Below are positions 3,961 to 63,263 of a DNA stretch of 64,000 nucleotides, piece after piece. A model generated the notes under the pieces. The model was not told the DNA's origin and made no database searches. It saw only the letters and a program-made list of their open reading frames with translations. The stretch comes from Bacteroidales bacterium (lineage in GTDB: Bacteria > Bacteroidota > Bacteroidia > Bacteroidales > UBA12077): contig JAZBOG010000034.1 in NCBI GenBank assembly GCA_036351015.1, forward strand, positions 21,665 to 85,664. The letters run 5' to 3'. Within the stretch, counting starts at the first letter, position 1. The number at the start of each line of letters is the position of its first letter. Both the position numbers and the translations under genes were made by a program.

Positions 3961-5541
3961 TTAATAGTGTAATGTAAAATAAAATACAGCACCTTTACCA
4001 GGTTCACTTTCTAACCATATTCTTTCATTATGTTTATCTATAAATTCTTTACAAAGTATTAAACCCAAACCAGTACCCTGTTCTTTTAAGGTTCCAGGAG
4101 AAGAAATATTTTCATCAAGTCGAAATAACTTATCGATCGCTGATTCAGAAAGACCAACTCCTGAATCTTTTACTGAAATCTCTACTTTATTTTGATTTAC
4201 CTTAGTTTGAACTTTAATTAAACCTCCATTTCGGGTAAACTTTATCGCATTGGAAATTAAATTTCTTAACACTGTTCTTATCATTTCCTTATCAGCATAA
4301 ACAACTTTTCCTGCAATTAAATTTTTCTCTATTTTTATTGATTTTTGTTCTGCTACCTCCCAAAATAATGATAGTGTTTTACTAATCGCTTCATCTATTT
4401 CAAAATATTCTGGATTGTATTCCAATCTGCCCGTTTGAGAAAGTGACCACTCCATTAAATTGGTAAGTAAATCCATTGCTTTTTTCGATGCATTCATAAT
4501 AACTTTCGAATACTTTAAAACATTCTCCATATCATCTTCTTCTACCTGATTTACAAGCAATTCTCCAAAACCAATAATAGAGTTAAAAGGGTTTCTTAAA
4601 TCATGTGCGATGATAGATAAAAACCGGTCTTTTTCAGCATTTAATTTTTGTAATTTCTGATTTTTAAGCTTAATATTTTCTGTTTTGATCTTAATCTGTT
4701 TGCGAAGCAACCACACCCACATAAATACTAATGCGAACAATATTGTTGCTACCAATAAAACAATTCCAATGTTCCTTGCAATTCGTTCATATTTGAAATC
4801 ATTTCTTTCATAAACTTTCCATTTAGCGTGTATTTCTTCAAGTTCCCCATTGGCTCGCAGGTCTGAAATACTTTTATTTAAGATGGCCAACAAATGCGTA
4901 TTTCCTTTTTTTACGGCCATACAATAAATACTGGGAATTATTGGTGGCCCCTTAACCTGCACATTTTTATAATTATTTTTACTAATCTCATTCATTCCCA
5001 ATGAATGCGGTGCTATTACGAAATCTGCCCTACCCCATTCAATACCTGCAATTGCCTCAGGTAAGGATTTTGCAACAATATAGTTATGGTAAAGGCCCAT
5101 CGGAATAAGAAATTTATCAATAGATATATCCTCTTTTAAAACCATTAACTTATAATTGTACAAATCAGATATTTCTTTTAATTGCAAATTCTTCCGAATA
5201 AAAATTGAATAATACTCAGTATGCAATGGATTTGTAAAATCCAGAATCGCTTCTCTTTCTTCTGAAAAAATTATTCCTGTTATAATATCAGTTTTCCCTG
5301 TTTGAATGTATGTTAATGCACTATCCCATTCACTTAATTCATATTCAAACGCTATACCTGTATCCTCAGAAATTGCATTCAATATATCAATATCTAACCC
5401 AGAAGCCTTCCCTGTTTTATCAATATAGGAGAACGGTGGATAATCAAAATCTCCACCCACAATATAAGTTTGGGAGAATAAAGCATTAAACTGAATGAGG
5501 TTTAAAAAAAGTATGAGAAGAGGGCAAAGAATTCTAATCAT
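3961..5541 (-). CDS. Sensor histidine kinase with an extracytoplasmic solute-binding (SBP_bac_3-like) sensor domain
   Basis: 526 aa. It has a signal/TM segment, a ~230-aa periplasmic binding-protein-like region, a TM segment (IGIVLLVATILFALVFMWVWLL), an H-box in SIIAHDLRNPFNSI, and ATPase G-boxes in DSGVGL and GTGLGL. Confidence 0.85.
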   Translation of the reverse strand: MIRILCPLLILFLNLIQFNALFSQTYIVGGDFDYPPFSYIDKTGKASGLDIDILNAISEDTGIAFEYELSEWDSALTYIQTGKTDIITGIIFSEEREAILDFTNPLHTEYYSIFIRKNLQLKEISDLYNYKLMVLKEDISIDKFLIPMGLYHNYIVAKSLPEAIAGIEWGRADFVIAPHSLGMNEISKNNYKNVQVKGPPIIPSIYCMAVKKGNTHLLAILNKSISDLRANGELEEIHAKWKVYERNDFKYERIARNIGIVLLVATILFALVFMWVWLLRKQIKIKTENIKLKNQKLQKLNAEKDRFLSIIAHDLRNPFNSIIGFGELLVNQVEEDDMENVLKYSKVIMNASKKAMDLLTNLMEWSLSQTGRLEYNPEYFEIDEAISKTLSLFWEVAEQKSIKIEKNLIAGKVVYADKEMIRTVLRNLISNAIKFTRNGGLIKVQTKVNQNKVEISVKDSGVGLSESAIDKLFRLDENISSPGTLKEQGTGLGLILCKEFIDKHNERIWLESEPGKGAVFYFTLHY

Positions 5542-21745: not shown

Positions 21746-24163
21746 TTAAAATTGAACAATAATACCCAGCGATGGTAAAACAGTTCCTGAACCATCGCTT
21801 TCAATCCGTTTCAGATCATACCGGGTTGGATCGTCGGGATCGATGAACAGATTTCCTTCCGCATCAGTTTGTGTAATCAGCTTATCAGGTTCATCCGATT
21901 TAAAGTTATACACATTCTGAACATCAATATAAAACATTAACGACCATTTATCAAAAAAATATTGTTTATCGACACGAAGATCCAGTTGGTGAAAAGGATC
22001 CAGGCGCAAAGCATTGAGTTGGCTAAAATCCAGGTATTCCCGCCCCCGGGCATTCCAGGCAGTGATCAGGCTCGATTTATTTTCATCAAAAGGGGTGTAA
22101 GGAGAACCTCCGACAAAGCGCCACTTAAAGCCAATCTGCCAGTTTCTTTTCAGATCTCTTGTAGCCGTTAAATTTAACAAATGAATATTATCCCACGACG
22201 TGGATATAAAGGAGGAGGTAAGATTCAGGTTTTCATCAAACTTTCTAAACTCACTCCTTACCAGGGTATAGGAGAGCACCAAATTAAAGCCCAGCAGGTC
22301 CCTGTGGCGGGCCAGAAGTTCCATACCATAAGCCTGACCTTCGGCAACAGACAAAACCTCCTCATCCCCGAAAGTACCATAATCAGCTCCTTTATTGGCC
22401 AGGGCAATCGAATCGTTGATGGAAAAAGGATAATCCCGGTAATATTTATAAAACCCTTCCAGGGAAATCAGGCTTTGCTCATCGGGTAAATATTCAAATC
22501 CTGCGACCAGATGATCCACGGAAATATATTTCAATCCATTGTTTTTATTTACCAGGTTTCCTGAAGCATCGCTAAAACCAAGGGTAGTATAGGCCGGGCG
22601 CTGATAGTAACGTCCGGTATTAAAATTAACCGACCAATCAGGTTGCAATTGATAGGAAGCAGAAAAGCGCGGAGAAATTTGGGACAGCATGTCCGACATT
22701 TCCGATGAATAATTATTCGCATCTGTTCTCATGCCCAGGGAAAGGGACAATCTCCCGGAAAAATATTCCTTACTTACCTGTCCAAAGAGAGACCACGACC
22801 ACAGGTCCAGGTTGGTGTTGTAACTAATGGTTTGTGCTGCATTTCCCACAAACTGTTTTCTGAATGTGCTGTTGGAATATTGTGCATATTCTACTCCGGC
22901 TCCATAGTTTATCTTATATCCCTGATCGGTACGGGTAGTATTTTCATACCTGAATTTTGTTTCCGTCTCTTCCGACTGATAGTCAAAGGTTAATAAAGAA
23001 TCTACCTCAACATTGTTTTGGTATTTATAGGATTGATTATTGAGGGTGTTTCTGCTGAGCACCCAGGTATCGTAGCTTTTTTCGCGGTAATGCTTAAATA
23101 CCGCACCCAGGGTATAGCTCCACTGCTCATTTACCGGGATATAATTTAAGATATAACGCTGTTCTTCAGTATCGTTGGCTTCCAGGTTGAGATCAAACTG
23201 GTCGATGGCTCCCAGCCCCAGGAGTGTAAGTTCATTCTTCTCATCAAAACGGGTTTTAACTTTAAACTGAGCATCATTGTAGGTAGGCAAAAACGGAAGT
23301 TGTAATGCAGCAAACAACAGTTGCAGGTAAGACCTTCGGGCCGAAAAGATAAAGGTTGTGTTATCGGTTAGGGGTCCGTCAAAAGTTAATGCCACTTCTG
23401 AAGCTCCAAGGGTTCCCTGGGTTTCCAGTTTTTCCTTGTTGCCATCTTTTTGTTTAAATTCCAGGATCGAGCTCAATGCGTTTCCGCGGTTTGCCGGGAA
23501 TGCCCCGGAATAAAAATCCACTTCGCGGATAAAATCCACATTGATAATTCCTACCGGACCGCCGGAAGCACCCTGTGTGGCAAAATGGTTTATATTGGGA
23601 ATCTCAACACCATCGAGGTAAAAGGAATTCTCGCTGGGACCACCTCCCCGTACAATAACATCATTCCGTTGAACCGGGGTGGAAGCCACCCCGGGAAAAG
23701 ATTGAATAACCTTCGAAATATCACGGTTGGCTCCCGGGCTCTTCTCGATATCCTGAATTCCTATCCTGCGTAACGACACAGGACTTTCTTCCGTTTTTCT
23801 GAAAGGGGATGGTTTTACCACGACCTCATCCAGCGCGATAGATGTTTCTTCCAGCGGGATATTGAGAAAAACGGTTTTTGCATTGGTTACCATCACTTCT
23901 TCGGAAATATAAGTCTTGAATCCAACCGCAGAAACCTGCAACTTAACAAACCCAGGTTCAATGCCGGTAAATAAAAATTCCCCGTCAAAATTCGATGCTG
24001 AACCAATATTGGTCTGATAGATCACTACATTGGCAAAAGGTACCGGTTCATTATTTTTACTGTTAAAAACCCTTCCCTGTATTTCGCCGCTATTTTTTTG
24101 CTGACCCTCCACCCATCCGGACAACAGGGAAAAAAATAACGTTAATAGTAAAAAATGCCTCAT
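21746..24163 (-). CDS. TonB-dependent receptor with a carboxypeptidase-regulatory-like N-terminal domain
   Basis: 805 aa with a signal peptide, a CarboxypepD_reg-like segment (GRVFNSKNNEPVPFANVVIYQT) and a plug (VIVRGGGPSENSFYLDGVEIPN). The barrel ends in an aromatic residue (IIVQF). Confidence 0.85.
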   Translation of the reverse strand: MRHFLLLTLFFSLLSGWVEGQQKNSGEIQGRVFNSKNNEPVPFANVVIYQTNIGSASNFDGEFLFTGIEPGFVKLQVSAVGFKTYISEEVMVTNAKTVFLNIPLEETSIALDEVVVKPSPFRKTEESPVSLRRIGIQDIEKSPGANRDISKVIQSFPGVASTPVQRNDVIVRGGGPSENSFYLDGVEIPNINHFATQGASGGPVGIINVDFIREVDFYSGAFPANRGNALSSILEFKQKDGNKEKLETQGTLGASEVALTFDGPLTDNTTFIFSARRSYLQLLFAALQLPFLPTYNDAQFKVKTRFDEKNELTLLGLGAIDQFDLNLEANDTEEQRYILNYIPVNEQWSYTLGAVFKHYREKSYDTWVLSRNTLNNQSYKYQNNVEVDSLLTFDYQSEETETKFRYENTTRTDQGYKINYGAGVEYAQYSNSTFRKQFVGNAAQTISYNTNLDLWSWSLFGQVSKEYFSGRLSLSLGMRTDANNYSSEMSDMLSQISPRFSASYQLQPDWSVNFNTGRYYQRPAYTTLGFSDASGNLVNKNNGLKYISVDHLVAGFEYLPDEQSLISLEGFYKYYRDYPFSINDSIALANKGADYGTFGDEEVLSVAEGQAYGMELLARHRDLLGFNLVLSYTLVRSEFRKFDENLNLTSSFISTSWDNIHLLNLTATRDLKRNWQIGFKWRFVGGSPYTPFDENKSSLITAWNARGREYLDFSQLNALRLDPFHQLDLRVDKQYFFDKWSLMFYIDVQNVYNFKSDEPDKLITQTDAEGNLFIDPDDPTRYDLKRIESDGSGTVLPSLGIIVQF

Positions 24164-28817: not shown

Positions 28818-29828
28818 ATGCATTCTAAATTCACGATCTACCATTTATTGTTTATACTTTTGCTTTTTTTCACGGGGTGTGTACCGGCAAAGCAATTTGA
28901 AGAATTACAGCAAAGTGCCAGGAAGTGTGAGGAAGAAAGGGAGTTATTAAACAATGAAAATAAACATCTTACCATCACCAATACCGAGCTGGAAGCAAAA
29001 ACAGCGCAATTACAAAAAAGAATAGAAAACCTGCAGGAAGATAGTGTGGAAAAAACCACCAGGCTTCGTACAATAGAAATTAAGTATGATAAGATCAACA
29101 AACAATATCATCAGCTTCAGGAATCACAGGATCAGCTTCTTTCGGGCAACATTGACGAAACCAGGAAATTACTCAGGGAACTCCAGAATACGCAGTCACA
29201 AATTATAGAAAAAGAGGATGAATTACGTAAACTGGAAGATAACTTACGCGCAGAAAGAAGCAAGTTAAATGCTTACGAGCAGGAGCTGGAGTCGAAAAAT
29301 GCCCGCCTGGTTGAGTTGGAAACAATTCTTCACCGGAAGGATTCTGTGGTTAATGTTTTAAAAGACAAGGTCTCCAAAGCATTGGTTGGCTTTACAGATG
29401 AAGGACTAGCGGTGGATATTCGCAATGGGAAGGTATATGTTTCACTCGAAGAGCAGTTACTTTTCAAATCCGGAAGCACCGAGGTGGATCCTAAAGGCGT
29501 TAGTGCCCTGAAAAAACTGGCAGGTGTACTTAGTAAAAATCCGGATATCAATATTATGGTAGAAGGACATACCGACGATGTGCCCTATATTCCCAGCGAA
29601 GCTATTCAGGACAACTGGGACTTAAGTGTTAAAAGGGCTACAGCCATTATCCGGATTTTAATGGAAGACTCTAATATCAAAGGGGACAGAATAATTGCCG
29701 CCGGCAGAAGCAAATATGTTCCTATTGAAGCAGGAAAGTCAGCTGAAGCACGTAAAAAGAACCGACGAACAGAAATAATCCTTACCCCAAAACTGGACGA
29801 GCTGTTCAAGATTCTGGAAGCAAACTAA
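28818..29828 (+). CDS. OmpA-family lipoprotein with a long N-terminal coiled coil
   Basis: 336 aa with the lipobox LFFTGC and ~170 aa of heptad-rich sequence. The C-terminal OmpA/MotB peptidoglycan-binding domain reads GHTDDVP...NWDLSVKRA...NRRTEIIL. Confidence 0.85.
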   Translation: MHSKFTIYHLLFILLLFFTGCVPAKQFEELQQSARKCEEERELLNNENKHLTITNTELEAKTAQLQKRIENLQEDSVEKTTRLRTIEIKYDKINKQYHQLQESQDQLLSGNIDETRKLLRELQNTQSQIIEKEDELRKLEDNLRAERSKLNAYEQELESKNARLVELETILHRKDSVVNVLKDKVSKALVGFTDEGLAVDIRNGKVYVSLEEQLLFKSGSTEVDPKGVSALKKLAGVLSKNPDINIMVEGHTDDVPYIPSEAIQDNWDLSVKRATAIIRILMEDSNIKGDRIIAAGRSKYVPIEAGKSAEARKKNRRTEIILTPKLDELFKILEAN

Positions 29829-29833
29829 TTAAG

Positions 29834-30823
29834 GTGGTGTGGTTCAGGTATTTTTCATTTATTAAGTGCTTTAATGCTATAAAGGTATTATTAAGCTATT
29901 TCCTTTCCATAGGATCAAAAAAGGTTTTTCTTTGGGGAAAACCATTCAGCCTTACCGTTGAACCAACAAATTTTTGTAACCTTCATTGTCCCGAGTGCCC
30001 TACAGGAAACAACACTTCAACAAGAACAAAAGGATACCTGCCGGTGTCGGACTATACCCGTATGATTGACCAGCTTTCTCCCTGGCTGTGGTATCATATG
30101 ATCTATTTCCAGGGAGAACCTTTCCTGCATCCCGATATTTTTTCAATCCTCGGGTATGCCCATAGCAAAAAAATTTATACCTGCACTTCAACCAATGGTC
30201 ATTTTATAACGGCCGAAAATGCCAGAAAAATTATTGAATCGGGACTCGACAAACTAATTATTTCGGTCGACGGAGTTACCCAGGAAGTCTATGAACAATA
30301 CCGAAAGGGGGGAAATCTGGGAAAAGTGGTCTCCGGAATCAAAACTCTGGCCGGAGAAAAAAGAAAATACCCAAGCAAAACCCCGCAAATTGTCCTTCAG
30401 TTTCTTGTTTTCCGGTTTAACGAACACCAGATTAAGGATATTCAATCCCTGGGCAGATCTGTTGGAGCAGATAGGGTTGAAATAAAAACAGCACAAATAG
30501 AGCGGGTCAATGATAAACAACACCTGGTACCCCGAGACAAAAAACATTCAAGATACCTTATTGCTAATGAAAAAGTTGTACAAAAAAACAACTTGAAGAA
30601 CAGGTGTTTGAGAATCTGGAGCACCCTGGTTACCACCTGGGACGGGAAGGTAATCCCCTGTTGTTTTGATAAAGATGCCAGCTATGGGATGGGTAATATT
30701 GGAAAATCCAATATTTTGGACCTTTGGAAATCAGATAAATTTCAAAATTTTAGGAACCAGCTCCTGAGAAACCGGAAAAGTATTAAAATGTGCAACAATT
30801 GTACGACAGGTCTGCATAAATAA
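29834..30823 (+). CDS. Radical SAM protein with a C-terminal SPASM-like Cys cluster
   Basis: 329 aa with a GTG start. It has the CxxxCxxC motif in FCNLHCPECP, and the C-terminal cysteines in VIPCCFDKD...KMCNNCT. It starts 5 nt after the OmpA-family gene. Confidence 0.8.
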   Translation: MVWFRYFSFIKCFNAIKVLLSYFLSIGSKKVFLWGKPFSLTVEPTNFCNLHCPECPTGNNTSTRTKGYLPVSDYTRMIDQLSPWLWYHMIYFQGEPFLHPDIFSILGYAHSKKIYTCTSTNGHFITAENARKIIESGLDKLIISVDGVTQEVYEQYRKGGNLGKVVSGIKTLAGEKRKYPSKTPQIVLQFLVFRFNEHQIKDIQSLGRSVGADRVEIKTAQIERVNDKQHLVPRDKKHSRYLIANEKVVQKNNLKNRCLRIWSTLVTTWDGKVIPCCFDKDASYGMGNIGKSNILDLWKSDKFQNFRNQLLRNRKSIKMCNNCTTGLHK

Positions 30824-30897
30824 GATATAATTTTTATATATTTAGGATTGATTCATATTTTTATCTATATTTCACCTATCGGATTAATTTTTACAAG

Positions 30898-33036
30898 ATG
30901 AAGACTATCAGCAATAAGTTATTCATACTTTTTATCATTGCCCTTGGATGGAGCATGGATGCATTAGCCCAGGAGCCTGATACTCTTTCAGCCAGCCGCC
31001 TTTTCGAACTTTCTCTGGAAGACCTGATGAATGTTGAGATTGTTTCGGCAGTCCGTCAAAATCAAAACATTATTGATGCTCCTTCCATTGTATCTGTAAT
31101 TACGTCAAACCAGATCAAGGAACGTGGATATTCCAGCCTGGAGGAAGCCATTAATAACATTGCAGGACTGGATATTATTACCGACCATTTTCAACCGAAC
31201 CTGGGAATACGAGGGATTAACGGAGGAGTAAGAAGTTATTCGAGGCTGATAAAAGTAATGATTGATGGGCAAAATATTTCATTCCGCTCCAATGCTGATA
31301 ATTACCTGGGATTATCCCTTATCCCCATAGAGGCGATTGAAAAGATAGAGATCATCCGTGGCCCAAATTCTGCCATCTATGGCAAAAATGCATTTTTAGG
31401 GGTAATCAATATTATTACCAGGAAAGGGAAAGATATTCGTACCAACAGGGTATCCCATTTTTTAGGAACTACAAACAATAACTCTTCCTTTGGATTAAGC
31501 ACCCTGATTGGGGGAGCTAAAAACAACTTTGACTTTCTGTTTGCCAGCACTTATGCCCAGTTAGATTATGCAGGATTAAAACCTCACGCTATTCCGGAAC
31601 AAAATACTTACATTACAAATGATGTAAGTCAGCGAAACGAATCGGTACCGATGGGTGTTTACGTTAAAATGAATTACGAAACCGAAAACTGGGGAAAATT
31701 CACCTTCGACATGGTGAATCAGAAAATAGACTCAGATGCAGAGTTTGCCGACTGGGGAGCAATAAACCAAAATAACAGGATAAGTCTTTTCAACTCTTTT
31801 GAAAGGCTTCAATACTCAAAAGAGCTATGGGAGAAGCTTTCTGCGGATTTTAGTTTTACCCACAGTGTTGGTAAACCTATCAGTAACGAAACATTCGATG
31901 ATGACACTGATCCTACCGACTGGATTGAAAGAGAATTAAAATATAACAGTTACGATGTGAGTGGTAATTTTACCTATTTCTTTGATGACATCAACCTGGT
32001 ATCATTAGGGATTGATTTTACGTCGGATATCCATGATCATCAAAAGTTTTATACACGGAATACTTCGGGGTTAAAGAGTTTAAACCCGGGAGGTACAGAA
32101 GGTGAAAAAATATTCACCAACCTGGGAATATTTATCCAAATGATCGTTAATCCTGCAAAGTTTTTCAACCTCTCCTTCCTGGAGGAGTTAACATTCACCG
32201 GCGGGTATCGATACGATATGCACAACATCTATGGAAATGTGTTAACCTATCGGTTTGCGGCGGTGTATCACCTAAACAAAGATCTGAGCACCAAGTTAAT
32301 GTATGGAACCTCATTTAATGCCCCTTCGTCTACCCAGCTATATACCAACTATATCAGCCCGGGGGGATTTGTAGGAAATCCTGAACTGAAGCCGGAAAGA
32401 GCAAGAACCTTAGATTGGGCACTGATGGGAAAAATAACGGAAAACATAAATTTCAGTACAAATTTATTTTATACCGAAATTGAAGACAAAATCGAATACC
32501 TCCTGCCTTACGGACAAATCTCAAACATCACTGCAGGAAATATTTCCAACATTTATTCCGGAGGATTTGAGGCAGAGGTAAATGTTAATCATAAAAACAA
32601 TAAGAGTTACTTAAATTATTCCTATCAAAAGAGCATCCTGGAAAAAAGTGATCCGATCCGTTCAACCATAAAGGTAAATACTGCTTTATATCCGTCGCAT
32701 ATGATAAAACTTGGAAACACTTTACAGATTCCTGATTATTATTTAAATATAAACCTGGAGGCAAGATTTATCAGTTCCAGAATCGCCAGTGACCAGAATA
32801 ATTTCATCTACGATCCAATTGATTATACGACCAATCGTTATACTTTGGACCCCTATTATATTGTTGATCTTTCAATTTCATCCACTGATCTGGAAATTAT
32901 CAAAAACAGTAAGTCAAGATTTATCTTAAAATTCGAAAATTTATTAGATTATAAGTACTATTTTCCCGGATTTAATCATTATGATATTCCTGCATTAGGA
33001 AGATCTGTGTGTTTTCGCTTTACTCATTACATTTAA
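30898..33036 (+). CDS. TonB-dependent receptor (plug plus beta-barrel)
   Basis: 712 aa with a signal peptide, an LEDLMNVEIVSA box, and plug motifs IVSVITSNQIKERGYSSLEEAINNIAGL and IEIIRGPNSAIYGKNAFLGVINIITRKG. Confidence 0.85.
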   Translation: MKTISNKLFILFIIALGWSMDALAQEPDTLSASRLFELSLEDLMNVEIVSAVRQNQNIIDAPSIVSVITSNQIKERGYSSLEEAINNIAGLDIITDHFQPNLGIRGINGGVRSYSRLIKVMIDGQNISFRSNADNYLGLSLIPIEAIEKIEIIRGPNSAIYGKNAFLGVINIITRKGKDIRTNRVSHFLGTTNNNSSFGLSTLIGGAKNNFDFLFASTYAQLDYAGLKPHAIPEQNTYITNDVSQRNESVPMGVYVKMNYETENWGKFTFDMVNQKIDSDAEFADWGAINQNNRISLFNSFERLQYSKELWEKLSADFSFTHSVGKPISNETFDDDTDPTDWIERELKYNSYDVSGNFTYFFDDINLVSLGIDFTSDIHDHQKFYTRNTSGLKSLNPGGTEGEKIFTNLGIFIQMIVNPAKFFNLSFLEELTFTGGYRYDMHNIYGNVLTYRFAAVYHLNKDLSTKLMYGTSFNAPSSTQLYTNYISPGGFVGNPELKPERARTLDWALMGKITENINFSTNLFYTEIEDKIEYLLPYGQISNITAGNISNIYSGGFEAEVNVNHKNNKSYLNYSYQKSILEKSDPIRSTIKVNTALYPSHMIKLGNTLQIPDYYLNINLEARFISSRIASDQNNFIYDPIDYTTNRYTLDPYYIVDLSISSTDLEIIKNSKSRFILKFENLLDYKYYFPGFNHYDIPALGRSVCFRFTHYI

Positions 33037-33048
33037 TCCTATGGTAAA

Positions 33049-34350
33049 ATGAACATGGTGAATAAATATAAAATATTAATTTTCTGTATTGGTTTTCTTC
33101 TCACCATTCCCCCGGGATGCGAAAAATTAACAGAAGATTATAACCAAAAGCAATATGAGAACCCAGTAAAGATTGCCGTAGTTGGAGATGTTTCTGTACT
33201 ACGGGAGCAGGTGGAGAATATGTTTTTTGGAGCCCAGCTGGCCATGGAAGAGATCAACCAAAAGGGAGGACTGGAAATCGATGGAGAGAAAAGAGAGATT
33301 CAGTTAATTTTTAAAAATTCCGGCGGGAATCCCGACCAGGGCACAGAAATAGTTTATGAATTGTATGAAGAAAATATCGACCTGATCATAGGCCCCACCT
33401 TTTCGTCGGTAGCGGTTGAAATGGCAGAAGCCTGTGTTAACAACAATATGTTAATGATCAGTTATTCGGCCACAACTCCTGAACTCACCATGCTGGAGGA
33501 TAAAGACCTGGTTTGGAGAACCTGCCCCTCCGATCATACGTTCGGAACCTTATCGGCCCAGTATTGTGTGGATTCATTGCAACTTAAGAATGCTGCGATT
33601 CTCTACCGGGACGACCGTTTTGGAACCGGTCTTGCACAGATTCTCGAAGAAATGTTTACCGAATTTGGCGGGTCGGTTTTAGCCAGTGTCAGTTTCCCCG
33701 GCGACGAAATTAATTTAAGCTCTTATGACTTCAGCTATGAGATGAATACTGTTTTTCGGAATGAAATCGATGTGCTTTTTATTGTAGCTTTCAACTCAGA
33801 AATTGCAGTCCTCACGAACAGAATTTATAACAACTCAAGCTATCAGTCGCTGAATAAAAAACCTTTTATCTTTGTAAATGACGGGATCCTCCCCGAAGAG
33901 ATCTTAACCAACGGAAGTCCAGAATTACTGGATGATATTTTGGGGATATCCAGCACAAATGAGGGAAACCCAAATTATGCCCTATATAAAGAAAATTACA
34001 TCTCAAGATTTGGATTTCTGCCGGCTACCTATTCAGAACACGCCTACGACGCTGTTTATTGCCTGGCTTATGCGATGCAAAGGGGCAATACAACCAACCC
34101 TTTACAGATAAAAGAATATTTACGCGAAATATCCGGCGAAGATTACTATAACCCTGTGAATGATGTATTAAAAATTAATGTAAATGAATTTGATATAGGT
34201 AAGAATATTTTACTTAAAGGAAATGCTATCGACTATGAAGGGGCAACAGGGCCGATAAATTTTGATATCAACGGAGACCCTGTGCCAAAAATTATCATTT
34301 GGGGGTTTGAAAATGAACAATATGTGGAACTAAGTTATTATGAGAAATAA
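33049..34350 (+). CDS. Type I periplasmic binding protein (Leu/Ile/Val-binding / ANF-receptor-like), probable lipoprotein
   Basis: 433 aa with the lipobox-like TIPPGC. VKIAVVGDVS...GAQLAMEEINQKGGL...LIIGPTFSSVA is typical of the family. Confidence 0.8.
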   Translation: MNMVNKYKILIFCIGFLLTIPPGCEKLTEDYNQKQYENPVKIAVVGDVSVLREQVENMFFGAQLAMEEINQKGGLEIDGEKREIQLIFKNSGGNPDQGTEIVYELYEENIDLIIGPTFSSVAVEMAEACVNNNMLMISYSATTPELTMLEDKDLVWRTCPSDHTFGTLSAQYCVDSLQLKNAAILYRDDRFGTGLAQILEEMFTEFGGSVLASVSFPGDEINLSSYDFSYEMNTVFRNEIDVLFIVAFNSEIAVLTNRIYNNSSYQSLNKKPFIFVNDGILPEEILTNGSPELLDDILGISSTNEGNPNYALYKENYISRFGFLPATYSEHAYDAVYCLAYAMQRGNTTNPLQIKEYLREISGEDYYNPVNDVLKINVNEFDIGKNILLKGNAIDYEGATGPINFDINGDPVPKIIIWGFENEQYVELSYYEK

Positions 34351-34947
34351 TTGGTGAAATTTTTCAATCATAAACATATAAACATACCCGAAATTTTTTC
34401 CTGGTCAGTTTTAAAAAAAACCGGAGTGATATTCCTTTTATTATTATTATCATTGCAGGGTTTTTCACAAGCCAGCATTTATGTATTAAAAGCTGTTTAT
34501 CTGGAAAAATTTTCCCGATTTATTACCTGGCCGGAAGAAAGTATCCAGGATGATCCCAGCCAGCCCTTTATCATTTCGGTTATTGGTGAAACCCCACTAA
34601 CCAGAAACCTGGAACAAATCTATGCTGTACAAAAAATTAAGAATAAACGGGTAATTATCAAAAGCATTAAAAATCTTAATGAAATTAAAGGTTCTCACAT
34701 ATTATTTATTGCTGAATCTGAGAAAAAGAACCTGGAGAAGATCATTGAAATAACAAAAAAAGAGCCTATCCTGACCATAAGTGAAACCAAGGGATTTGCA
34801 CAAGAAGGTGTTTTAATCAACTTTTTTGAAAGTGACAATAAATTAAGATTTGAAATAAATGAAACGGCAGTACTAAAATCACCCTTACAAATGAGCTTTT
34901 ACTTATTAAGTTCGGCGAAAATAGTACATCCGGTAGCAGAAGAATAA
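34351..34947 (+). CDS. YfiR-like periplasmic protein (DUF4154 family)
   Basis: 198 aa with a signal peptide. LKAVYLEKFSRFITWPEE, the central ILFIAESEKK and ILTISETKGFAQEGVLINF...LRFEINETA follow the YfiR/DUF4154 pattern as I recall it. There is zero gap to the upstream stop. Confidence 0.7.
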   Translation: MVKFFNHKHINIPEIFSWSVLKKTGVIFLLLLLSLQGFSQASIYVLKAVYLEKFSRFITWPEESIQDDPSQPFIISVIGETPLTRNLEQIYAVQKIKNKRVIIKSIKNLNEIKGSHILFIAESEKKNLEKIIEITKKEPILTISETKGFAQEGVLINFFESDNKLRFEINETAVLKSPLQMSFYLLSSAKIVHPVAEE

Positions 34948-34952
34948 GAACG

Positions 34953-36860
34953 ATGAATTTCTTTCAGAACATATCCATAAAAAACAAGATTATTGGTATA
35001 ATTCTACTTACCAGTAGTGTAACGTTAATTATTGGTTTCACTATTATAGGGATCAACGATATTAACAGTCTGAAAAAGAATCTTCTTGCCAATGCAATTT
35101 TAAATACACAACTTGTTGGAGATTATTCTGTAGCTTCCTTAACTTTTGATGATAATGAAGGAGCCGAAGAGATCCTGGCAAAGCTCGAATCGCTGCCTGA
35201 TTTTATCAGTGGTGCTATATACGACCGTAATGGAATCCTGTTTGCATCCTATAAAAGAACCAATGATATTTTTATCCCTCCCCTTTATGATGACCCGGAT
35301 AATTTAACCCGTACAAAATATACTTTCGAATCGGGAACATTAACTATTGAGGATCCAATCAACTATCAAGAGTACAAATATGGAATTATTATTACCAAAG
35401 TAGACTCCTCCCTGTTAACGGAAAAGATTAAAGAATATATTATAGTGATCCTCGGTGTTTTTGCCGGGATGATTATCTTATCCTTTATTCTTGCCCGCCG
35501 TTTTCAGAAGCCGATTTCACAGCCAATTCTTGAATTAGCTCAACTTACGCGAAAAATTTCAAAAGAAGGGAATTACAATGTAAAAATTGAAAGAAAAAGC
35601 AATGATGAAATTGGGGTTCTATACGAAGATTTTAACAATATGCTCCAGCAAATCTTAAACCGGGAAGCAGCCCGTGACCAGGCAGAAAAGAACCTGCTTA
35701 AGGCTAAAATGAAAGCAGAAGAGAGTGACCAGCTGAAATCTGCATTCCTGGCAAATATGTCGCATGAAATCAGAACCCCGATGAATGCTATTCTTGGATT
35801 TACAGAACTGCTTACCATGCCTGACACGGCGATTTCACCCGCTGAAAAACAAAATTACATTAAATTAATACATCACAGTGGCAACAACCTTTTACAGCTT
35901 ATTGATGATATTATAGATATCTCGAAAATTGAAGCCGGACAACTAAAAATAATCCCAAAAGAATGTGATGTAAACCAAACGTTAATGGATATTTACGAAT
36001 CCTATCAGGAAATAAAAAAGCAAAAAGGGAAAGAACATATCGATCTGTCGGTAAACCTGGCCGAAAAAAATCAGCAGGTTATTACCCAAACCGACCCGCT
36101 TCGTTTAATTCAGATTATTTCTAATCTCATTGATAATGCCTTGAAATTTACCGAGGAAGGATTTATCACCTTTGGCTATGAAATTCAAAAACCGGACCTC
36201 CTGCTGTTCTATGTCAAAGATACGGGTATCGGGATGGATGAAAAGAAGAAAGAGTTTATATTTGAGCGGTTCCGGAAAATTGAAGACAGTAAAACAAAAT
36301 TATACCGTGGGGCAGGGTTAGGACTTGCCATATGTAAAAGCCTGGTCGAATTACTGGGGGGAAAAATATGGGTGGAATCTTATCGCGGCTCAGGGTCGGG
36401 ATTTTATTTTACCATCCCATATCATAAAGTAAAAAATCCCAGGAATAAAAAAGGTACTTCTCTCAAAGACACAAACTACCAATGGAAGGATAAAAAAATT
36501 CTTATTGCCGAAGATGAACCCAACAACTATTTCTATATCGAAGAAGTCCTCAAAAGAACCCATACAAAAATCATCAGAGCGAATAACGGAAAAGAAGCCA
36601 TCCGGATCTTCAAGGAAAATCCACAAATAGATTTAATCATCATGGATATTAAAATGCCGGAAATGGATGGTTACGAAGCCACTACACAAATCAAAAAAAT
36701 CAATAAACATATTCCTATTATAGCCCAATCAGCCTATGCAATGCCCGGGGACATCGAAAAAGGGTACCTGATGGGAATCAATGAATATATCACAAAACCG
36801 GTTAATCCCAAAAAACTACTTACCATCCTGAATAAATATCTTAATTCCAGGGTATCCTAA
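34953..36860 (+). CDS. Hybrid sensor histidine kinase/response regulator with a YfiN-type (CHASE8-like) periplasmic sensor and HAMP
   Basis: 635 aa arranged TM, ~130-aa periplasmic domain (SLTFDDNEGAEEILAKLESLPDFISGAIYDRNGILFASY), TM, HAMP. It has the H-box MSHEIRTPMN, the ATPase boxes DTGIGM and GAGLGLAI, and a receiver domain with DLIIMDIKMPEMDG. Confidence 0.9.
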   Translation: MNFFQNISIKNKIIGIILLTSSVTLIIGFTIIGINDINSLKKNLLANAILNTQLVGDYSVASLTFDDNEGAEEILAKLESLPDFISGAIYDRNGILFASYKRTNDIFIPPLYDDPDNLTRTKYTFESGTLTIEDPINYQEYKYGIIITKVDSSLLTEKIKEYIIVILGVFAGMIILSFILARRFQKPISQPILELAQLTRKISKEGNYNVKIERKSNDEIGVLYEDFNNMLQQILNREAARDQAEKNLLKAKMKAEESDQLKSAFLANMSHEIRTPMNAILGFTELLTMPDTAISPAEKQNYIKLIHHSGNNLLQLIDDIIDISKIEAGQLKIIPKECDVNQTLMDIYESYQEIKKQKGKEHIDLSVNLAEKNQQVITQTDPLRLIQIISNLIDNALKFTEEGFITFGYEIQKPDLLLFYVKDTGIGMDEKKKEFIFERFRKIEDSKTKLYRGAGLGLAICKSLVELLGGKIWVESYRGSGSGFYFTIPYHKVKNPRNKKGTSLKDTNYQWKDKKILIAEDEPNNYFYIEEVLKRTHTKIIRANNGKEAIRIFKENPQIDLIIMDIKMPEMDGYEATTQIKKINKHIPIIAQSAYAMPGDIEKGYLMGINEYITKPVNPKKLLTILNKYLNSRVS

Positions 36861-59222: not shown

Positions 59223-61961
59223 ATGAAACAATTAACGCTATTTATTTCTCTTTTTCTGTTTTTCATCTCCTCAACATTTGCCCAAACCGGGTCAATTAAA
59301 GGAGTAATTATAGAAAGCAGGAATACTGAGCCTCTAAAGGAGGTAAATATTATAGTAAAAGGAACCAACCTAGAAGAATTTTCTAAATCAAACGGCGAAT
59401 TTTTAATCAATCATGTACCCGTTGGTGAAGGGAATCTGGTTTTCAGGTTAGAAAATTATGAGACCAAAGAGATTCCTTATGTTCTCAAAGAAAATGATCT
59501 GCTTGATATCGGGACCATAACTTTACAGTATGCCCCCACCAAGCAAAAAGACAAGGACGACCTTCCTATGGTGGTATTGGATGCCGGGGATTTAGAGGAC
59601 AACGAGGCCGATCAGGGGATTGGAGGATTGTTGCACTCCTCGGATGATATTTTTGCCTCCACAGCTGCCTATACTTTTGGTGCTGCCCGTTTCGATATAC
59701 GTGGCTTTGGATCGGAAAACTCCACGGTATTTTTTAATGGGATCAGGATGAATAACCTGGAAACGGGAAGGCCTTACTGGTCGGACTGGGGTGGATTAAA
59801 TGATGCTACCCGAAACGAGGAATTATTTTATGGAATGGATAACAACAAATATTCATTAACTACCATCGGAAGTGGTTCTAATATTATTACCAGGGCATCG
59901 GAATACAGTCCCGGAATAAAAGTGTCGTACATGAATACCAATAAATACTACAATAACCGTGTAATGGCAACAGCCTCGACCGGGTTAATGGATAACAACT
60001 GGGCATTTACCATTTCGGGTTCGCGCCGGTGGTCGCAGGAAGGTTATGTGGAAGGAACCTTTTACGATGCGAATGCAGTGCTTTTAGCCGCGGAAAAAAT
60101 TCTTAACGATCATCATACCATTTCTTTAACCGCATTTGTTACCCCCAACAAAAGAGGGAAACTGATCGGTTCAACCCAGGAAGCATACGACTATGTTGAT
60201 AACAACTATTACAATGCAAACTGGGGCTATCAGGACGGTGAAAAAAGAAATTCAAGAATATCCAATACCTTTAAACCCTTTATTGAGTTAAATCACTTTT
60301 GGGATTACAATGATAAATTAAAAATAAATACCGCGGTAGCATACTCGTTTGGCCGTGACGGTGACACCAGGCTAAACTGGTACGATGCTGCAGACCCACG
60401 TCCCAATTATTACAAATATTTACCATACTTTAACCGGGATGTGGAAGGTTATACCTGGGATAACCAGCAGGTTGACTGGGACTTTTTCTATTTCGCCAAC
60501 CGGAAAAACCTTTATACCCAGGAAGATGTTGATGGAATTGATGGGAACGATGTGGATTTTATCCGTGCAAAATATATGATCGAAGATCAGCGCATTGATC
60601 ATAATCAGATTATTGCAAATGCACATTTGATTTACGACCTGAACGATAACCTCCGGTTAACCGGTAGTATTGACTATAACTGGTACAAGGGAAAGCACTT
60701 CAAGCTGGTGGATGATTTATTGGGAGCTGAATACTGGGTGGATATTGATCATTTTGCCGAAAGAGATTTTGCCGATCCCGTAATTGCCCAAAGCGACCTG
60801 GACAACCCCAACCGGTTAGTTGAAGAGGGAGATGTTTTCGGATACGACTTTGATGCCAATATTCAGAAAATCGGTGGGTTTATAAAGGGTGACTATACCT
60901 TAGGAAAAGTAGATGCTTACCTGGGTGTTGACCTGTCGAATACCAGCTTTTACCGCACCGGGAATATGCGTAACGGAAAATTCCCGGAAAACTCCGCCGG
61001 GAACTCCGAAAAACAATCGTTCTTTAACTATGCTCTCTCGGGCGGAGCTACCTTTAAACTAACCGGGCGCCACATTTTCACCGGGAATGCCACCTATATG
61101 ACCCGGGCACCGTTTTTTGAGAATGCCTATGTTTCGCCCAGAACCAGGAATGTTGAAGTGGACGGGCTCACCAGCGAGAAGATTCTTTCGACCGATCTGA
61201 ATTATATTATCCGAATGCCTGGGTTGCGGGGAAGGATCACCGGATACTATTCAACCTTTAAGGACCAGATTGATGTGATGAGCTTCTATCACGACGATTA
61301 CAACAGCTTTGTTAATTACTCGATGACCGGAATTGACAAAAAACACTTTGGTACCGAAGTCGGTCTTGAATATGATATTACCACCACCTTAAGTGTACAG
61401 GGGGTTGCAGCCATAGGACAGTATACCTATGACTCCAGACCCAATGTTACCATTACACGGGATAACGATGCCGAAACATTAGGTGAGGCCAATCAAACAG
61501 TGTATGTAAAAAACTTTTATGTGGATGGAACTCCACAACAAGCCTATTCTGTAGGACTTAGTTACAACTCTCCACAATACTGGTGGCTGGAAGTAAATGC
61601 CAGCTATTTTGATGATATCTACTTAAGTTTCAATCCTGCCCGCCGGACATCTGATGCAATTGTGGGACTGGAACCAGACTCACCCTATGGTGCTGCAAAA
61701 ATTCAAGAGATTACGCAACAGGAAAAATTAGCCAGCCATTACACGGTTGATCTTTCCGGGGGTAAATCCTGGAAATTCGGAGATTATTACCTGAGCCTTT
61801 ATGCCAACATCTCTAACCTCCTTGACAATCAGGAGTTCATTACAGGCGGCTATGAACAATTAAGATTTGACTATCAAAACCAGGATGTAAATAAATTCTC
61901 CCCGGTATATTATTATATGTGGGGAAGAACCTACATGCTAATATTAACCTTTAGATTTTAA
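59223..61961 (+). CDS. TonB-dependent receptor with a carboxypeptidase-regulatory-like N-terminal domain
   Basis: 912 aa with a signal peptide, a CarboxypepD_reg-like segment (GSIKGVIIESRNTEPLKEVNIIVKGT) and a plug (FDIRGFGSENSTVFFNGIRMNN). The barrel ends in TFRF. Confidence 0.85.
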   Translation: MKQLTLFISLFLFFISSTFAQTGSIKGVIIESRNTEPLKEVNIIVKGTNLEEFSKSNGEFLINHVPVGEGNLVFRLENYETKEIPYVLKENDLLDIGTITLQYAPTKQKDKDDLPMVVLDAGDLEDNEADQGIGGLLHSSDDIFASTAAYTFGAARFDIRGFGSENSTVFFNGIRMNNLETGRPYWSDWGGLNDATRNEELFYGMDNNKYSLTTIGSGSNIITRASEYSPGIKVSYMNTNKYYNNRVMATASTGLMDNNWAFTISGSRRWSQEGYVEGTFYDANAVLLAAEKILNDHHTISLTAFVTPNKRGKLIGSTQEAYDYVDNNYYNANWGYQDGEKRNSRISNTFKPFIELNHFWDYNDKLKINTAVAYSFGRDGDTRLNWYDAADPRPNYYKYLPYFNRDVEGYTWDNQQVDWDFFYFANRKNLYTQEDVDGIDGNDVDFIRAKYMIEDQRIDHNQIIANAHLIYDLNDNLRLTGSIDYNWYKGKHFKLVDDLLGAEYWVDIDHFAERDFADPVIAQSDLDNPNRLVEEGDVFGYDFDANIQKIGGFIKGDYTLGKVDAYLGVDLSNTSFYRTGNMRNGKFPENSAGNSEKQSFFNYALSGGATFKLTGRHIFTGNATYMTRAPFFENAYVSPRTRNVEVDGLTSEKILSTDLNYIIRMPGLRGRITGYYSTFKDQIDVMSFYHDDYNSFVNYSMTGIDKKHFGTEVGLEYDITTTLSVQGVAAIGQYTYDSRPNVTITRDNDAETLGEANQTVYVKNFYVDGTPQQAYSVGLSYNSPQYWWLEVNASYFDDIYLSFNPARRTSDAIVGLEPDSPYGAAKIQEITQQEKLASHYTVDLSGGKSWKFGDYYLSLYANISNLLDNQEFITGGYEQLRFDYQNQDVNKFSPVYYYMWGRTYMLILTFRF

Positions 61962-61994: not shown

Positions 61995-63263
61995 ATGAAA
62001 AAAATGAATAAAAAATCAGTAATCTATACATTAATCTTTGCTTTGTCAATGACAATGTTTTCGTGTGTGGATGACGAATTTGACACACCCCCCGAGCGAA
62101 CCATCCCCGAAGGAGACCCCATTACCATTCAGGAAGTAAAAAACCTGTTTAATGATGAAGGAGATTATCAGTTTACTACGGATCAATCCATTTATGCTGT
62201 AGTAACCATGGATGACAAGAGTGGAAACATATACAAAACTGCTTATATCCAGGATCATACCGGAGCAATCGCCTTACACATGGACGCCTCGGGAGGATTG
62301 TACGAAGGGGATTCAATCCGTATTCAACTAAACGGATTAAAAGTAGGTCAGTACGAAAACTTATTCCAGATTGATGCACCGGACGGAAATGGTTTTACCA
62401 TGGACGAATATATCACCAAACTGGATACCCGGGTTGACGTAGCCCCGGAACAGGTTACTATTCTTGATATCGTTTCAGGAATGGACTACTACCAGTGTAG
62501 AATTGTTAAGTTAGACAACGTTCAGTTTATTCCCTCGGATACTTCAAAAACCTATGCCAACGGAGATGATCTGATAACAGAAAACAGAACGATTGAAGAC
62601 CAGGATGGAAATACCCTCATTATCAGAACCAGCGGGTATGCATCTTTTGCAAATGATGCAGTTCCTAACGGCAGTGGATCATTAGTGGCTATCGTTGGTC
62701 AGTACAGGGACGATGTTCAGCTATACATCCGTTCGGCCGAAGAAGTTAATATGAATAATGAACGTTTTGATGTGATTGAATCGGTAATTTCATTTGATAA
62801 TTTTGGTACACAGGGACAATTCTATCAATACAGCGTTACCGGCGATCAGGTATGGACCCTGGCCACCTATGGATACGCAAAAATGACCGGTTATGACGGA
62901 TCCCAGTTTGCCAATGAGGACTGGCTGATCTCATCGGCGCTTGACCTTACCGACAAATCGAATGTTATTCTCAACTTCAGGCATACTGCCGGATATGTTT
63001 ATACCGGGGTATGGGATGATCTGCAACTCCTTGTATCCGATGATTATTCAGGTAGCGGCGATCCCAACGAAGCCACCTGGACTTCCTATACCTTTACCAC
63101 CCCTCCGGCAGAACCTTTCTGGACATGGGTTGACTCGGGAGACATAGATCTTTCGGCTCATGATGGTAACAACAATGTGTATGTGGCATTTAAATACGTA
63201 AGTACCACATCAAATTGTGCCACCTGGGAAATTGAAGATATTGTCCTGAGTGAAGGGATATAA
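61995..63263 (+). CDS. Surface lipoprotein with an OB-fold-like (DUF5689-type) N-terminal region and a choice-of-anchor-J-like C-terminal domain
   Basis: 422 aa with the lipobox MTMFSC. YAVVTMDDKSGNIYKTAYIQDHTGAIALHM...GDSIRIQLNGLKVGQYENLFQI resembles the OB-fold module of extracellular nucleases. The C-terminal NEDWLISSALDL is typical of choice-of-anchor J. All recognised by eye only. Confidence 0.65.
   Translation: MKKMNKKSVIYTLIFALSMTMFSCVDDEFDTPPERTIPEGDPITIQEVKNLFNDEGDYQFTTDQSIYAVVTMDDKSGNIYKTAYIQDHTGAIALHMDASGGLYEGDSIRIQLNGLKVGQYENLFQIDAPDGNGFTMDEYITKLDTRVDVAPEQVTILDIVSGMDYYQCRIVKLDNVQFIPSDTSKTYANGDDLITENRTIEDQDGNTLIIRTSGYASFANDAVPNGSGSLVAIVGQYRDDVQLYIRSAEEVNMNNERFDVIESVISFDNFGTQGQFYQYSVTGDQVWTLATYGYAKMTGYDGSQFANEDWLISSALDLTDKSNVILNFRHTAGYVYTGVWDDLQLLVSDDYSGSGDPNEATWTSYTFTTPPAEPFWTWVDSGDIDLSAHDGNNNVYVAFKYVSTTSNCATWEIEDIVLSEGI

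Follow-up and report, generated by a model that had tools for sequence, protein, structure and literature searches.

A TonB-dependent receptor, a YfiR-like protein and a hybrid sensor kinase encoded together in a Bacteroidales genome: a proposed envelope-spanning sensory cassette

Introduction

Do an outer-membrane receptor and a sensor kinase whose genes share one short block belong to a single signalling pathway? The question is raised by positions 30898-36860 of a 64,000-nucleotide stretch of a Bacteroidales bacterium genome (GenBank assembly GCA_036351015.1, contig JAZBOG010000034.1, positions 21,665 to 85,664; hereafter the window), where genes for a TonB-dependent receptor, a LivK-like binding lipoprotein, a YfiR-like (DUF4154) protein and a hybrid sensor histidine kinase follow one another. 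The best-known signalling by TonB-dependent receptors across the envelope is of the FecA type, which involves an STN domain, an anti-sigma factor and an extracytoplasmic function (ECF) sigma factor. To our knowledge YfiBNR is the only DUF4154 system that has been studied, and many DUF4154 proteins are annotated merely as "YfiR family protein" or "hypothetical". A first-pass annotation of the window, made from the sequence alone, had seen in the block a YfiR/YfiN-type pair connected to a phosphorelay, with the receptor and the binding protein in the position of YfiB.

Here, we describe the four genes and their relatives in other genomes and in metagenomes. On balance, and if only by a little, we think it probable that they make up a sensory cassette that spans the envelope and whose basis is a widespread input module of receptor, YfiR-like protein and CHASE8-HAMP transducer, the mechanism of which we infer from gene order and from the predicted proteins.

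Results

A conserved core of receptor, YfiR-like protein and CHASE8-HAMP transducer

The list of open reading frames (ORFs) places all four genes on the plus strand with gaps of 12, 0 and 5 nt, as the first-pass annotation had stated. Its domain calls also agree with Pfam (Plug and barrel; ANF_receptor/Peripla_BP_6; DUF4154; CHASE8-HAMP-HisKA-HATPase-REC). The genes, as given by the ORF list and Pfam, are:

30898-33036, plus strand: TonB-dependent receptor, 712 aa
33049-34350, plus strand: type I (LivK/ANF-receptor-like) binding lipoprotein, 433 aa
34351-34947, plus strand: YfiR-like (DUF4154) periplasmic protein, 198 aa
34953-36860, plus strand: hybrid sensor histidine kinase, 635 aa

Gene neighbourhoods were obtained from a scan of a genome collection seeded with an alignment of the YfiR-like protein (40 loci) and from a metagenome scan seeded from a Cloacimonadota relative (80 further loci, 28-50% identity to the seed), and neighbours were classed with local hidden Markov models built from domain envelopes. 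Among 99 unique YfiR-like genes, a CHASE8-like sensor gene lies directly downstream in 82 of 88 informative cases, with a median gap of -1 nt, and a TonB receptor gene lies upstream in 73 of 79 classifiable cases, 24 times directly and 49 times via a binding-protein gene. The receptor was the second upstream gene in all 38 of these 49 binding-protein cases in which that position is visible, and a truncated upstream ORF in locus L108 is a receptor barrel. Since retrieval relied on the motif LKAVYLEK, the counts, and with them the neighbourhood statistics that the first-pass annotation had proposed for DUF4154 genes across Bacteroidota, hold for this subfamily and not for all DUF4154 proteins.

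About 35 Bacteroidales loci from metagenome-assembled genomes (MAGs) keep the order dxs (minus strand), OmpA-domain lipoprotein, radical-SAM-SPASM protein, receptor, binding protein, YfiR-like protein and kinase. Their dxs genes are 71-89% identical, which marks them as one lineage. The order is kept in every related Bacteroidales locus that is long enough, so the arrangement is non-random. Outside this lineage the binding-protein, OmpA-domain and radical-SAM genes are gone and the receptor/YfiR-like/sensor core remains: Cloacimonadota (L042) and many contigs from soil, peat and sediment, at 28-50% identity, have the trio with no binding-protein gene. Two cassettes per contig, in tandem or divergent, occur in L062, L075 and L080. 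If a cassette is defined operationally as same-strand genes for a receptor, a DUF4154 protein and a CHASE8-HAMP transducer, the window contains one with a single gene inserted. Judged by these neighbourhoods, the receptor, the YfiR-like protein and the CHASE8-HAMP transducer are a conserved core, tightly linked across phyla, and the LivK-like lipoprotein is an insertion into it. The co-conservation that the first-pass annotation had expected is therefore seen at two levels, as the four-gene order in related Bacteroidales and as the core in other phyla.

Outputs were surveyed by classification of the loci, as the kinase sensor (residues 1-239) used as a query drew just 11 proteins, most of them fragments. 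A non-hybrid kinase, with its partners encoded right after it as receiver genes (REC, REC-kinase), is present in L042, L069, L080 and L098, and many loci are alike; in L042 the full order is receptor, YfiR-like protein, CHASE8-HAMP-PAS-kinase, REC and REC-PAS. The transducer of L095 (5835-13494) is a chemoreceptor: its receptor and YfiR-like genes precede genes for CHASE8-HAMP-MCP, CheA (Hpt-HATPase-CheW-REC) and CheB, and a CHASE3-MCP gene lies upstream. L127 (5297-7219; JGI 3300033508, Ga0371430_1017319) encodes a 640-aa fusion made of a signal peptide, DUF4154 (56 bits), a coiled coil of about 150 residues, a transmembrane segment and HisKA/HATPase; its gene comes after those for a TonB receptor of the CarboxypepD_reg type and for two LivK-like lipoproteins in tandem. 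A YfiR-like domain is thus itself the periplasmic sensor of a histidine kinase in this locus. This fusion is independent evidence for DUF4154 in the input pathway of a kinase. From the domain content of these loci, one input module serves varied outputs, namely kinase, hybrid kinase, chemoreceptor and fused kinase. L045 (Melioribacteraceae) has two tandem YfiR-like genes followed by three receptors, with no adjoining CHASE8 sensor.

The YfiR-like protein is a remote homologue of YfiR

The 198-aa protein scores 117.9 bits against Pfam DUF4154 (PF13689, "YfiR/HmsC-like"; gathering cutoff 24.9; E 5e-34). It has a signal peptide ending in ...GFSQA and a mature part free of cysteine. With its AlphaFold model (predicted local distance difference test, pLDDT, 71; core 77-89), the top Foldseek matches in the PDB are structures of Pseudomonas aeruginosa YfiR (4yn9, 4yn7, 4xjy and 4zhu; E 5e-6 to 1e-4), at a target TM of about 0.6 and an identity of 15-16%. 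Score and fold together place the protein in the YfiR/HmsC-like superfamily. This superfamily is large: a cutoff of E <= 1e-10 leaves about 12,000 matches to the DUF4154 profile among cluster representatives (421 at E <= 1e-30). Many of the high-scoring relatives are double-length (P0252, P0254, P0255; 340-395 aa), with two matched stretches that are apparently tandem domains.

The relationship to YfiR itself is distant. A broader profile that includes more distant relatives (A3) reaches YfiR in the PDB near full length (E 4e-4); the sequence alone and a narrow alignment (A1) found no YfiR there at E <= 1. The protein scores 24.4 bits with the YfiR equivalog model NF053586 (cutoff 85), its L042 and L045 relatives score 29-36 bits, and with the TOL_0243 YfiR-like model NF053591 it falls just short, at 122.5 bits against a cutoff of 125. 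YfiR has the cysteine pairs Cys71-Cys110 and Cys145-Cys152, of which the latter is essential for folding, and its stability and redox behaviour depend on them (PMC4655355). No conserved Cys pair was found across 45 relatives of the window protein, and YfiR C145 and C152 align to non-Cys positions, so at least redox sensing as in YfiR cannot operate here. Because the equivalog score is far below its cutoff, YfiR in the PDB was not reached by the protein alone or by the narrow profile, and the cysteine pairs are absent, we rejected orthology with YfiR. The YfiR identity given by the first-pass annotation is thus sustained for family and fold and lost for orthology: on profile scores and a predicted structure, the 198-aa protein is a remote YfiR homologue that shares its fold.

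A motif F-E-x-N is invariant in the family (F167, E168 and N170 in the window protein) and aligns, via the L095 relative, to F162-E163-A164-N165 of YfiR, in which E163 contacts both YfiB and YfiN (PMC4655355). The YfiR fold resembles half an ATP-binding cassette (ABC) binding protein (PMC4655355). A fold match to the window model was also obtained for a single-domain "substrate-binding protein" of Rhodothermus marinus (5z6v, 6k1x, 8wgl; E 4.5e-5 to 9e-5), with no match between the two at the sequence level in sequence and profile searches. Genes of the R. marinus type are reported to lie near chemoreceptor genes (PMC10805632), as the YfiR-like gene does in L095; the R. marinus protein has no assigned function, and its authors made no connection to YfiR or to TonB receptors.

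The start of the gene is placed at TTG 34351 by the ORF list. The public Joint Genome Institute (JGI) call gives 173 aa from GTG 34426, which is 25 codons shorter and cuts the basic n-region of the signal peptide. Since homologues of 191-196 aa keep the upstream basic region, the longer ORF is likelier and we prefer the 198-aa form. A start at TTG 34351 or GTG 34354 abuts the stop codon of the binding-protein gene.

The hybrid kinase carries a YfiN-type sensor

The kinase is ordered as a first transmembrane segment, a periplasmic CHASE8-like domain (about 35-161), a second transmembrane segment, HAMP, HisKA, HATPase and receiver. Hydrophobic segments at about 14-34 and 163-181 bound the periplasmic loop, which contains the string SLTFDDNEGAEEILAKLESLP quoted by the first-pass annotation. 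Pfam gives CHASE8 39.7 bits (cutoff 27), HAMP 39.1 bits, HisKA, HATPase_c and Response_reg. The model for YfiR-like protein-associated kinases, NF053592, aligns residues 8-234, that is sensor and HAMP, to profile positions 1-221 of 223 with 163 bits, below its cutoff of 194. By these profile matches the sensor is of the YfiN type, and a YfiR-fold gene directly precedes a CHASE8-HAMP sensor gene just as yfiR precedes yfiN, in support of the YfiR/sensor pair proposed by the first-pass annotation.

The output had been read as a phosphorelay rather than GGDEF, and the domain content supports this: Pfam found no GGDEF match and no Hpt domain within the kinase, and the H-box (H271), the G1 and G2 boxes and the receiver Asp region DLIIMD (about 561-566; Asp about 566) are all intact. 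The best full-length kinase matches to the catalytic core include TorS and LuxQ. As the first-pass annotation had noted, phmmer detected no response regulator and no further receiver-domain ORF in the 64-kb window; its statement that no Hpt protein is encoded there agrees with a search that found none elsewhere in the window, although with a single seed this is a weak test.

The window also encodes a second sensor kinase (3961-5541, minus strand), in which a family-3 solute-binding domain (SBP_bac_3) is fused to HisKA-HATPase; no response regulator for it was detected in the window. In some relatives (L003/L004, 11906-14499, minus strand) the next genes after the cassette lie on the opposite strand and encode a SiaC-family protein and a TPR-SpoIIE-phosphatase with a receiver; these genes are absent from the window and could be a candidate downstream partner module.

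The receptor has a conserved N-terminal segment

The receptor is of a non-SusC type and consists of a signal peptide, a conserved acidic N-terminal segment with a TonB-box-like strand, a plug (59-169) and a barrel. At E <= 0.1, Pfam shows only Plug (72.9 bits) and TonB_dep_Rec_b-barrel (91.5 bits), with no STN or other N-terminal signalling domain. The acidic segment and TonB-box-like strand, LFELSLEDLMNVEIVSA, occupy residues about 35-52, between signal peptide and plug, and the string LEDLMNVEIVSA quoted by the first-pass annotation is present at residues about 41-52. The alignment to the TOL_0244 model NF053590 begins at this acidic segment and covers residues 35-198 only (N-terminus and plug); its score, 93.8 bits, is far from the cutoff of 645.

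Versions of the segment are present in essentially all cassette receptors, those of other phyla included, as judged by eye from the sequences; a regular expression proved too strict and under-counted. In a motif scan of the window's ORFs of at least 100 aa, only this receptor has the motif. The window's two other TonB receptors, both with a CarboxypepD_reg domain at the N-terminus, are without it:

21746-24163, minus strand: TonB receptor
59223-61961, plus strand: TonB receptor

The LivK-like protein is a lipoprotein associated with the receptor

The binding protein belongs by Pfam to ANF_receptor (106 bits, 2e-30) and Peripla_BP_6 (88 bits, 1e-24). Its AlphaFold model (pLDDT 87; predicted TM score, pTM, 0.85; residues 25-31 disordered) is best matched in the PDB by amino-acid binders of the LivK/LivJ/Atu2422 type, with a target TM of 0.86 and E 5e-26 for LivK 3td9. 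Its two-lobed fold and Pfam membership make it a type I periplasmic binding protein. Residues S119, A141, T142, F191 and F248 align to LivJ Ser79, Ala101, Thr102, Tyr150 and Tyr202, which we take to be contacts of the ligand alpha-amino and alpha-carboxylate groups. Only 11% of columns are invariant in the family, yet 30-34 of 34 orthologues retain these positions. This conservation points to a small-molecule pocket, possibly for an amino-acid-like ligand.

The protein is a lipoprotein, with Cys24 followed by a conserved acidic tether (CEKLTEDYN in the window). The lipobox Cys is invariant across orthologues, and the tether, which is net acidic and disordered in the model, follows the pattern C-[ES]-x-L-x-E-D-[YFL]-N and is kept at 36-38% identity (CSDLKEDLN, CSSLKEDFN, CSKLEVDLN). 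The nearest ABC-type relative (P0227, 27% identity, beside LivHMGF genes) has an ordinary signal peptide with no lipobox and no tether. No permease or ATPase genes lie beside the binding-protein gene in the window cassette or in any related locus. On these grounds, the "ABC transporter substrate-binding protein" of public records at these loci is a family of receptor-associated lipoproteins.

Within the Bacteroidales block the binding protein diverges fastest (40-81% identity), and apart from one Bacteroidales clade it is seen in only a few relatives that are more distant (L127). In L128 (3128-6743; GCA_030633385.1) a TonB receptor gene is followed by one for a LivK-like lipoprotein 36% identical to that of the window, with no YfiR-like gene, kinase or ABC transporter adjoining. 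Such a pair argues that the binding protein is primarily a partner of the receptor, and its gene order suggests a stand-alone class of receptor and type-I-binding-lipoprotein pairs.

Lipoprotein export signals of Bacteroidota are acidic stretches right after the Cys (PMC5080379). The acidic residues of the tether stand at +2, +6 and +7, compared with the canonical K-(D/E)2 at +3 to +5 or SDDDD. A textbook signal, C-VDDEFD, is found elsewhere in the window in a DUF5689/DUF5017 lipoprotein (61995-63263, plus strand) encoded after a SusC-like receptor (CarboxypepD_reg and Plug; 59223-61961, plus strand). Given the non-canonical spacing and this clearer signal in the same genome, surface exposure of the binding protein, as predicted from its tether, is possible only.

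Flanking genes and the spacer

Upstream of the four genes lie, on the same strand:

28818-29828, plus strand: OmpA-domain lipoprotein, 336 aa, with a lipobox, a long coiled coil and a C-terminal OmpA domain
29834-30823, plus strand: radical-SAM/SPASM protein, 5 nt from the OmpA-domain gene
30824-30897, plus strand: AT-rich 74-nt spacer 5' of the receptor gene (from the sequence)

The spacer is the sole sizeable gap in the same-strand run from the OmpA-domain gene to the kinase gene, and therefore likely carries the promoter of the four-gene unit. A single sigma-70-like match lies near it (30803-30831); such matches are not enriched over shuffles, and the scan, which omits Bacteroidota promoters, was uninformative (37 promoter-like sites against 28 +/- 6 expected), as was a terminator scan (6 terminator-like sites against 7.7 expected).

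The OmpA-domain lipoprotein gene, two genes 5' of the four-gene unit, had been missed by the first-pass annotation. It is syntenic in related Bacteroidales loci; the radical-SAM gene is absent in L026 and L033, where the spacing differs. Since the OmpA-domain gene is absent from all distant cassettes, it is probably a mere synteny neighbour. A contig labelled as a "Thiohalospira sp." MAG (L018, JBKHIH010000037.1) has a seven-gene block of 66-87% protein identity to the window, with dxs at 87%; the contig was probably mis-binned into a gammaproteobacterial MAG.

Discussion

How might the four proteins work together? We suggest that the secreted YfiR-like protein binds the periplasmic domain of the kinase and sets its kinase/phosphatase balance, by analogy with YfiR and YfiN. 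The receptor would replace YfiB as the outer-membrane element that relieves or imposes control over the YfiR-like protein, acting via its acidic N-terminal segment beside the TonB box or via the ligand that it admits. Events at the outer membrane, whether ligand occupancy or transport, could then lead to phosphorylation of H271 and subsequently of the receiver Asp, with the signal passing to an unlinked Hpt protein or regulator, or with the receiver serving as an internal sink. The inserted LivK-like lipoprotein, primarily a receptor partner, may define or sharpen ligand specificity by capturing an amino-acid-like small molecule, whether on the outside of the cell or in the periplasm. The first-pass annotation had put both receptor and binding protein in the position of YfiB. 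The receptor, as the partner conserved across phyla, may keep that place; the binding protein does not, being largely limited to one clade and also paired with kinase-less receptors.

Several observations weigh against this model. Gene linkage by itself does not tell which partner the YfiR-like protein contacts, be it receptor, ligand, binding protein or only the kinase. The YfiR-like protein is without the cysteines of YfiR, the receptor is without the STN domain of known TonB-dependent transducers, and the CHASE8 match of the kinase is partial (profile positions 1-66 of 102). Neither the phmmer search nor the single-seed Hpt search of the window found an Hpt protein or regulator for the kinase. 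All loci were retrieved via the one subfamily motif and most come from one Bacteroidales lineage, and the specificity of the N-terminal motif for YfiR-linked receptors was compared against the two other window receptors only.

The main rival, which we hold to be possible but rather doubtful, is that sensing is wholly periplasmic. The receptor would be an entry gate only, with no contact to the YfiR-like protein; the imported compound would be sensed by the YfiR-like protein in the role of a single-domain binding protein, by the LivK-like protein or by the CHASE8 domain, and the kinase would mainly autoregulate the uptake operon, in the manner of TorT-TorS, LuxP-LuxQ, or PfeS/PirS sensing imported enterobactin. 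The conserved amino-acid-type pocket of the binding protein, the likeness of the YfiR fold to half an ABC binding protein (PMC4655355) and the receptor without an STN domain all agree with it, as does the R. marinus single-domain protein among the fold matches, whose gene type is reported near chemoreceptor genes (PMC10805632), as in L095. However, the LivK-like protein is not in every cassette (the receptor directly adjoins the YfiR-like gene in 24 of 73), a ligand pocket of the YfiR-like protein is putative only, and a passive gate does not explain why the N-terminal segment of the receptor is conserved across phyla. In L045, moreover, the YfiR-like genes go with three receptors and lack an adjoining CHASE8 sensor. 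The evidence is compatible with either model and cannot separate signalling through the receptor from sensing in the periplasm. Either would also accommodate a binding protein that stands outside the periplasmic signalling path, as a surface lipoprotein that caps or feeds the receptor like SusD, BtuG or XusB, a proposal to which we give somewhat less than an even chance. In its favour are the invariant Cys and net-acidic tether, kept at 36-38% identity and absent from the ABC-type outgroup, the likeness of this tether to Bacteroidota export signals, which are acidic stretches after the Cys (PMC5080379), the position of the gene directly after the receptor gene, the kinase-less pair in L128 and the lack of ABC transporter genes nearby. 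Against it, the tether spacing is non-canonical (+2, +6, +7), the lipoprotein after the SusC-like receptor in the same genome has the much clearer C-VDDEFD, and acidic residues (EE at +8 and +9) likewise occur in the upstream OmpA-domain lipoprotein, for which a periplasm-facing position is presumed. Moreover, we know of no type I binding protein shown on the Bacteroidota surface.

Could the locus instead be a canonical YfiBNR-type system, in which the OmpA-domain lipoprotein (28818-29828) stands in for YfiB, while receptor and binding protein are unrelated neighbours? Its gene is on the same strand, two genes upstream, and syntenic in all related Bacteroidales loci. However, the radical-SAM gene and the 74-nt spacer separate it from the receptor gene, the radical-SAM gene is absent and the spacing changed in L026/L033, and the protein is 336 aa long with a long coiled coil, compared with roughly 168 aa for YfiB. 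The binding-protein-less cassettes of other lineages have no OmpA-domain gene, and it is the receptor that is co-conserved across phyla. We consider this reading very improbable and rejected the OmpA-domain lipoprotein as the YfiB equivalent because it is not co-conserved beyond one clade. The last alternative is that gene order is due to chance or inheritance and that the uptake and signalling genes are uncoupled. The roughly 35 genome loci do represent one lineage (dxs 71-89% identical) in which the flanks are syntenic too. Yet the receptor/YfiR-like/sensor order recurs at 28-50% identity amid unrelated flanks, duplicate copies are tandem or divergent (L062, L075, L080), ORFs overlap or abut, DUF4154 and kinase are fused in L127, and curated NCBIfam partner models exist, so that this explanation, already disfavoured, now has next to no credence with us.

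Returning to a signalling role for the receptor, a wider proposal can be made, although we advance it as speculation that is less likely than the cassette itself: DUF4154 proteins may be general periplasmic adaptors in a second kind of TonB-dependent signalling, in which an STN-less receptor signals its ligand occupancy by way of the acidic N-terminal segment to a soluble YfiR-like protein, and this protein gates exchangeable inner-membrane transducers (kinases, chemoreceptors or diguanylate cyclases); in this Bacteroidales clade the LivK-type lipoprotein would be a surface ligand-capture partner of a new class. The data suggest a YfiR-type repressor/sensor pair as a portable input module that can be joined outwards to an outer-membrane transporter and inwards to kinases, chemoreceptors or cyclases. 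What is new here is the Bacteroidales variant with its inserted LivK-like lipoprotein, the finding, by domain content, that the input module feeds kinases, chemoreceptors and a fused kinase alike, and the reading of a family of "ABC substrate-binding proteins" as receptor-associated lipoproteins. The last corrects public annotation at cassette loci with no ABC transporter beside them. Should the receptor indeed gate the YfiR-like protein, the way in which Bacteroidota, Cloacimonadota and soil lineages link nutrients to envelope signalling could be studied in a defined model that is open to genetics; should the LivK-like lipoprotein prove to be exposed on the surface, the known accessory proteins of TonB receptors would gain a new fold. 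The searchable literature holds no experimental characterisation of the cassette, from which the testable idea follows that TonB-dependent signalling has a second mode.

Comparison with known systems

Like YfiBNR (TpbB) of P. aeruginosa and HmsCDE of Yersinia, the window has a secreted DUF4154-fold gene directly 5' of a gene for a CHASE8-HAMP protein, here with a 5-nt gap, an outer-membrane component encoded alongside, and an F-E-x-N motif that aligns to the YfiR E163 region. It differs in its output, which is HisKA-HATPase_c-Response_reg and not GGDEF, and in its outer-membrane partner, which is a TonB receptor of the 22-strand class and not an OmpA/Pal-like lipoprotein such as YfiB; an OmpA-domain gene is absent outside the Bacteroidales clade. 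The YfiR-like protein, at 15-16% identity and without cysteine pairs, also scores below the YfiR equivalog cutoff.

With FecA-FecR-FecI the cassette shares the idea that the ligand state of a receptor is relayed by a partner exposed to the periplasm, although the role of the receptor here is inferred. Like FecA, the receptor has a conserved extra N-terminal segment before the plug. It has no STN domain, and the block has no anti-sigma or ECF sigma genes; the relay would consist of a soluble DUF4154 protein and a two-component kinase.

The LivK-like protein recalls TorT-TorS and LuxP-LuxQ, in which an orphan periplasmic-type binding protein without an ABC transporter is found beside a hybrid kinase. 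Here, however, the binding protein is a lipoprotein, is encoded beside a receptor and is also found with kinase-less receptors, and the sensor of the kinase is CHASE8-like. It equally recalls SusC-SusD and BtuB-BtuG, as a receptor gene is followed by a gene for a lipoprotein with an acidic post-Cys tether, but the lipoprotein has the type I binding-protein fold and not that of SusD or a beta-propeller, the receptor is not of the SusC type, and exposure is putative.

The closest relatives are in NCBIfam, where a trio of linked models, NF053590 (TOL_0244 receptor), NF053591 (TOL_0243 YfiR-like protein) and NF053592 (kinase), shows that curators have already recognised a receptor/YfiR-like/kinase trio. 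Together with the abundance of such cassettes in metagenomes, this makes the first-pass annotation's view of the architecture as unrecognised too strong. Our literature search found no paper on the receptor/YfiR-like/kinase arrangement, some of the matches being judged by title and abstract. The sole paper found to mention TOL_0244 reports its sevenfold induction on n-C28 alkane by proteomics (PMC6304351), and the same paper puts Alcanivorax OmpS, a TonB-type receptor credited with triggering chemotaxis towards alkanes, at 40% similarity to TOL_0244. The three models are the nearest specific ones for three of the four window genes, and also for the L042 and L045 proteins, and they share with the window both the three-component logic and the adjacency of the genes. 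The window differs from them in that its proteins score below all cutoffs, the receptor barrel is unmatched, an inserted LivK-like gene separates the receptor gene from the YfiR-like gene, and the host is a Bacteroidales bacterium, whereas the seed of the trio is gammaproteobacterial (Thalassolituus). By profile scores and gene order, the window cassette is thus a below-threshold relative of the catalogued trio, carried by Bacteroidales and extended by a LivK-like lipoprotein.

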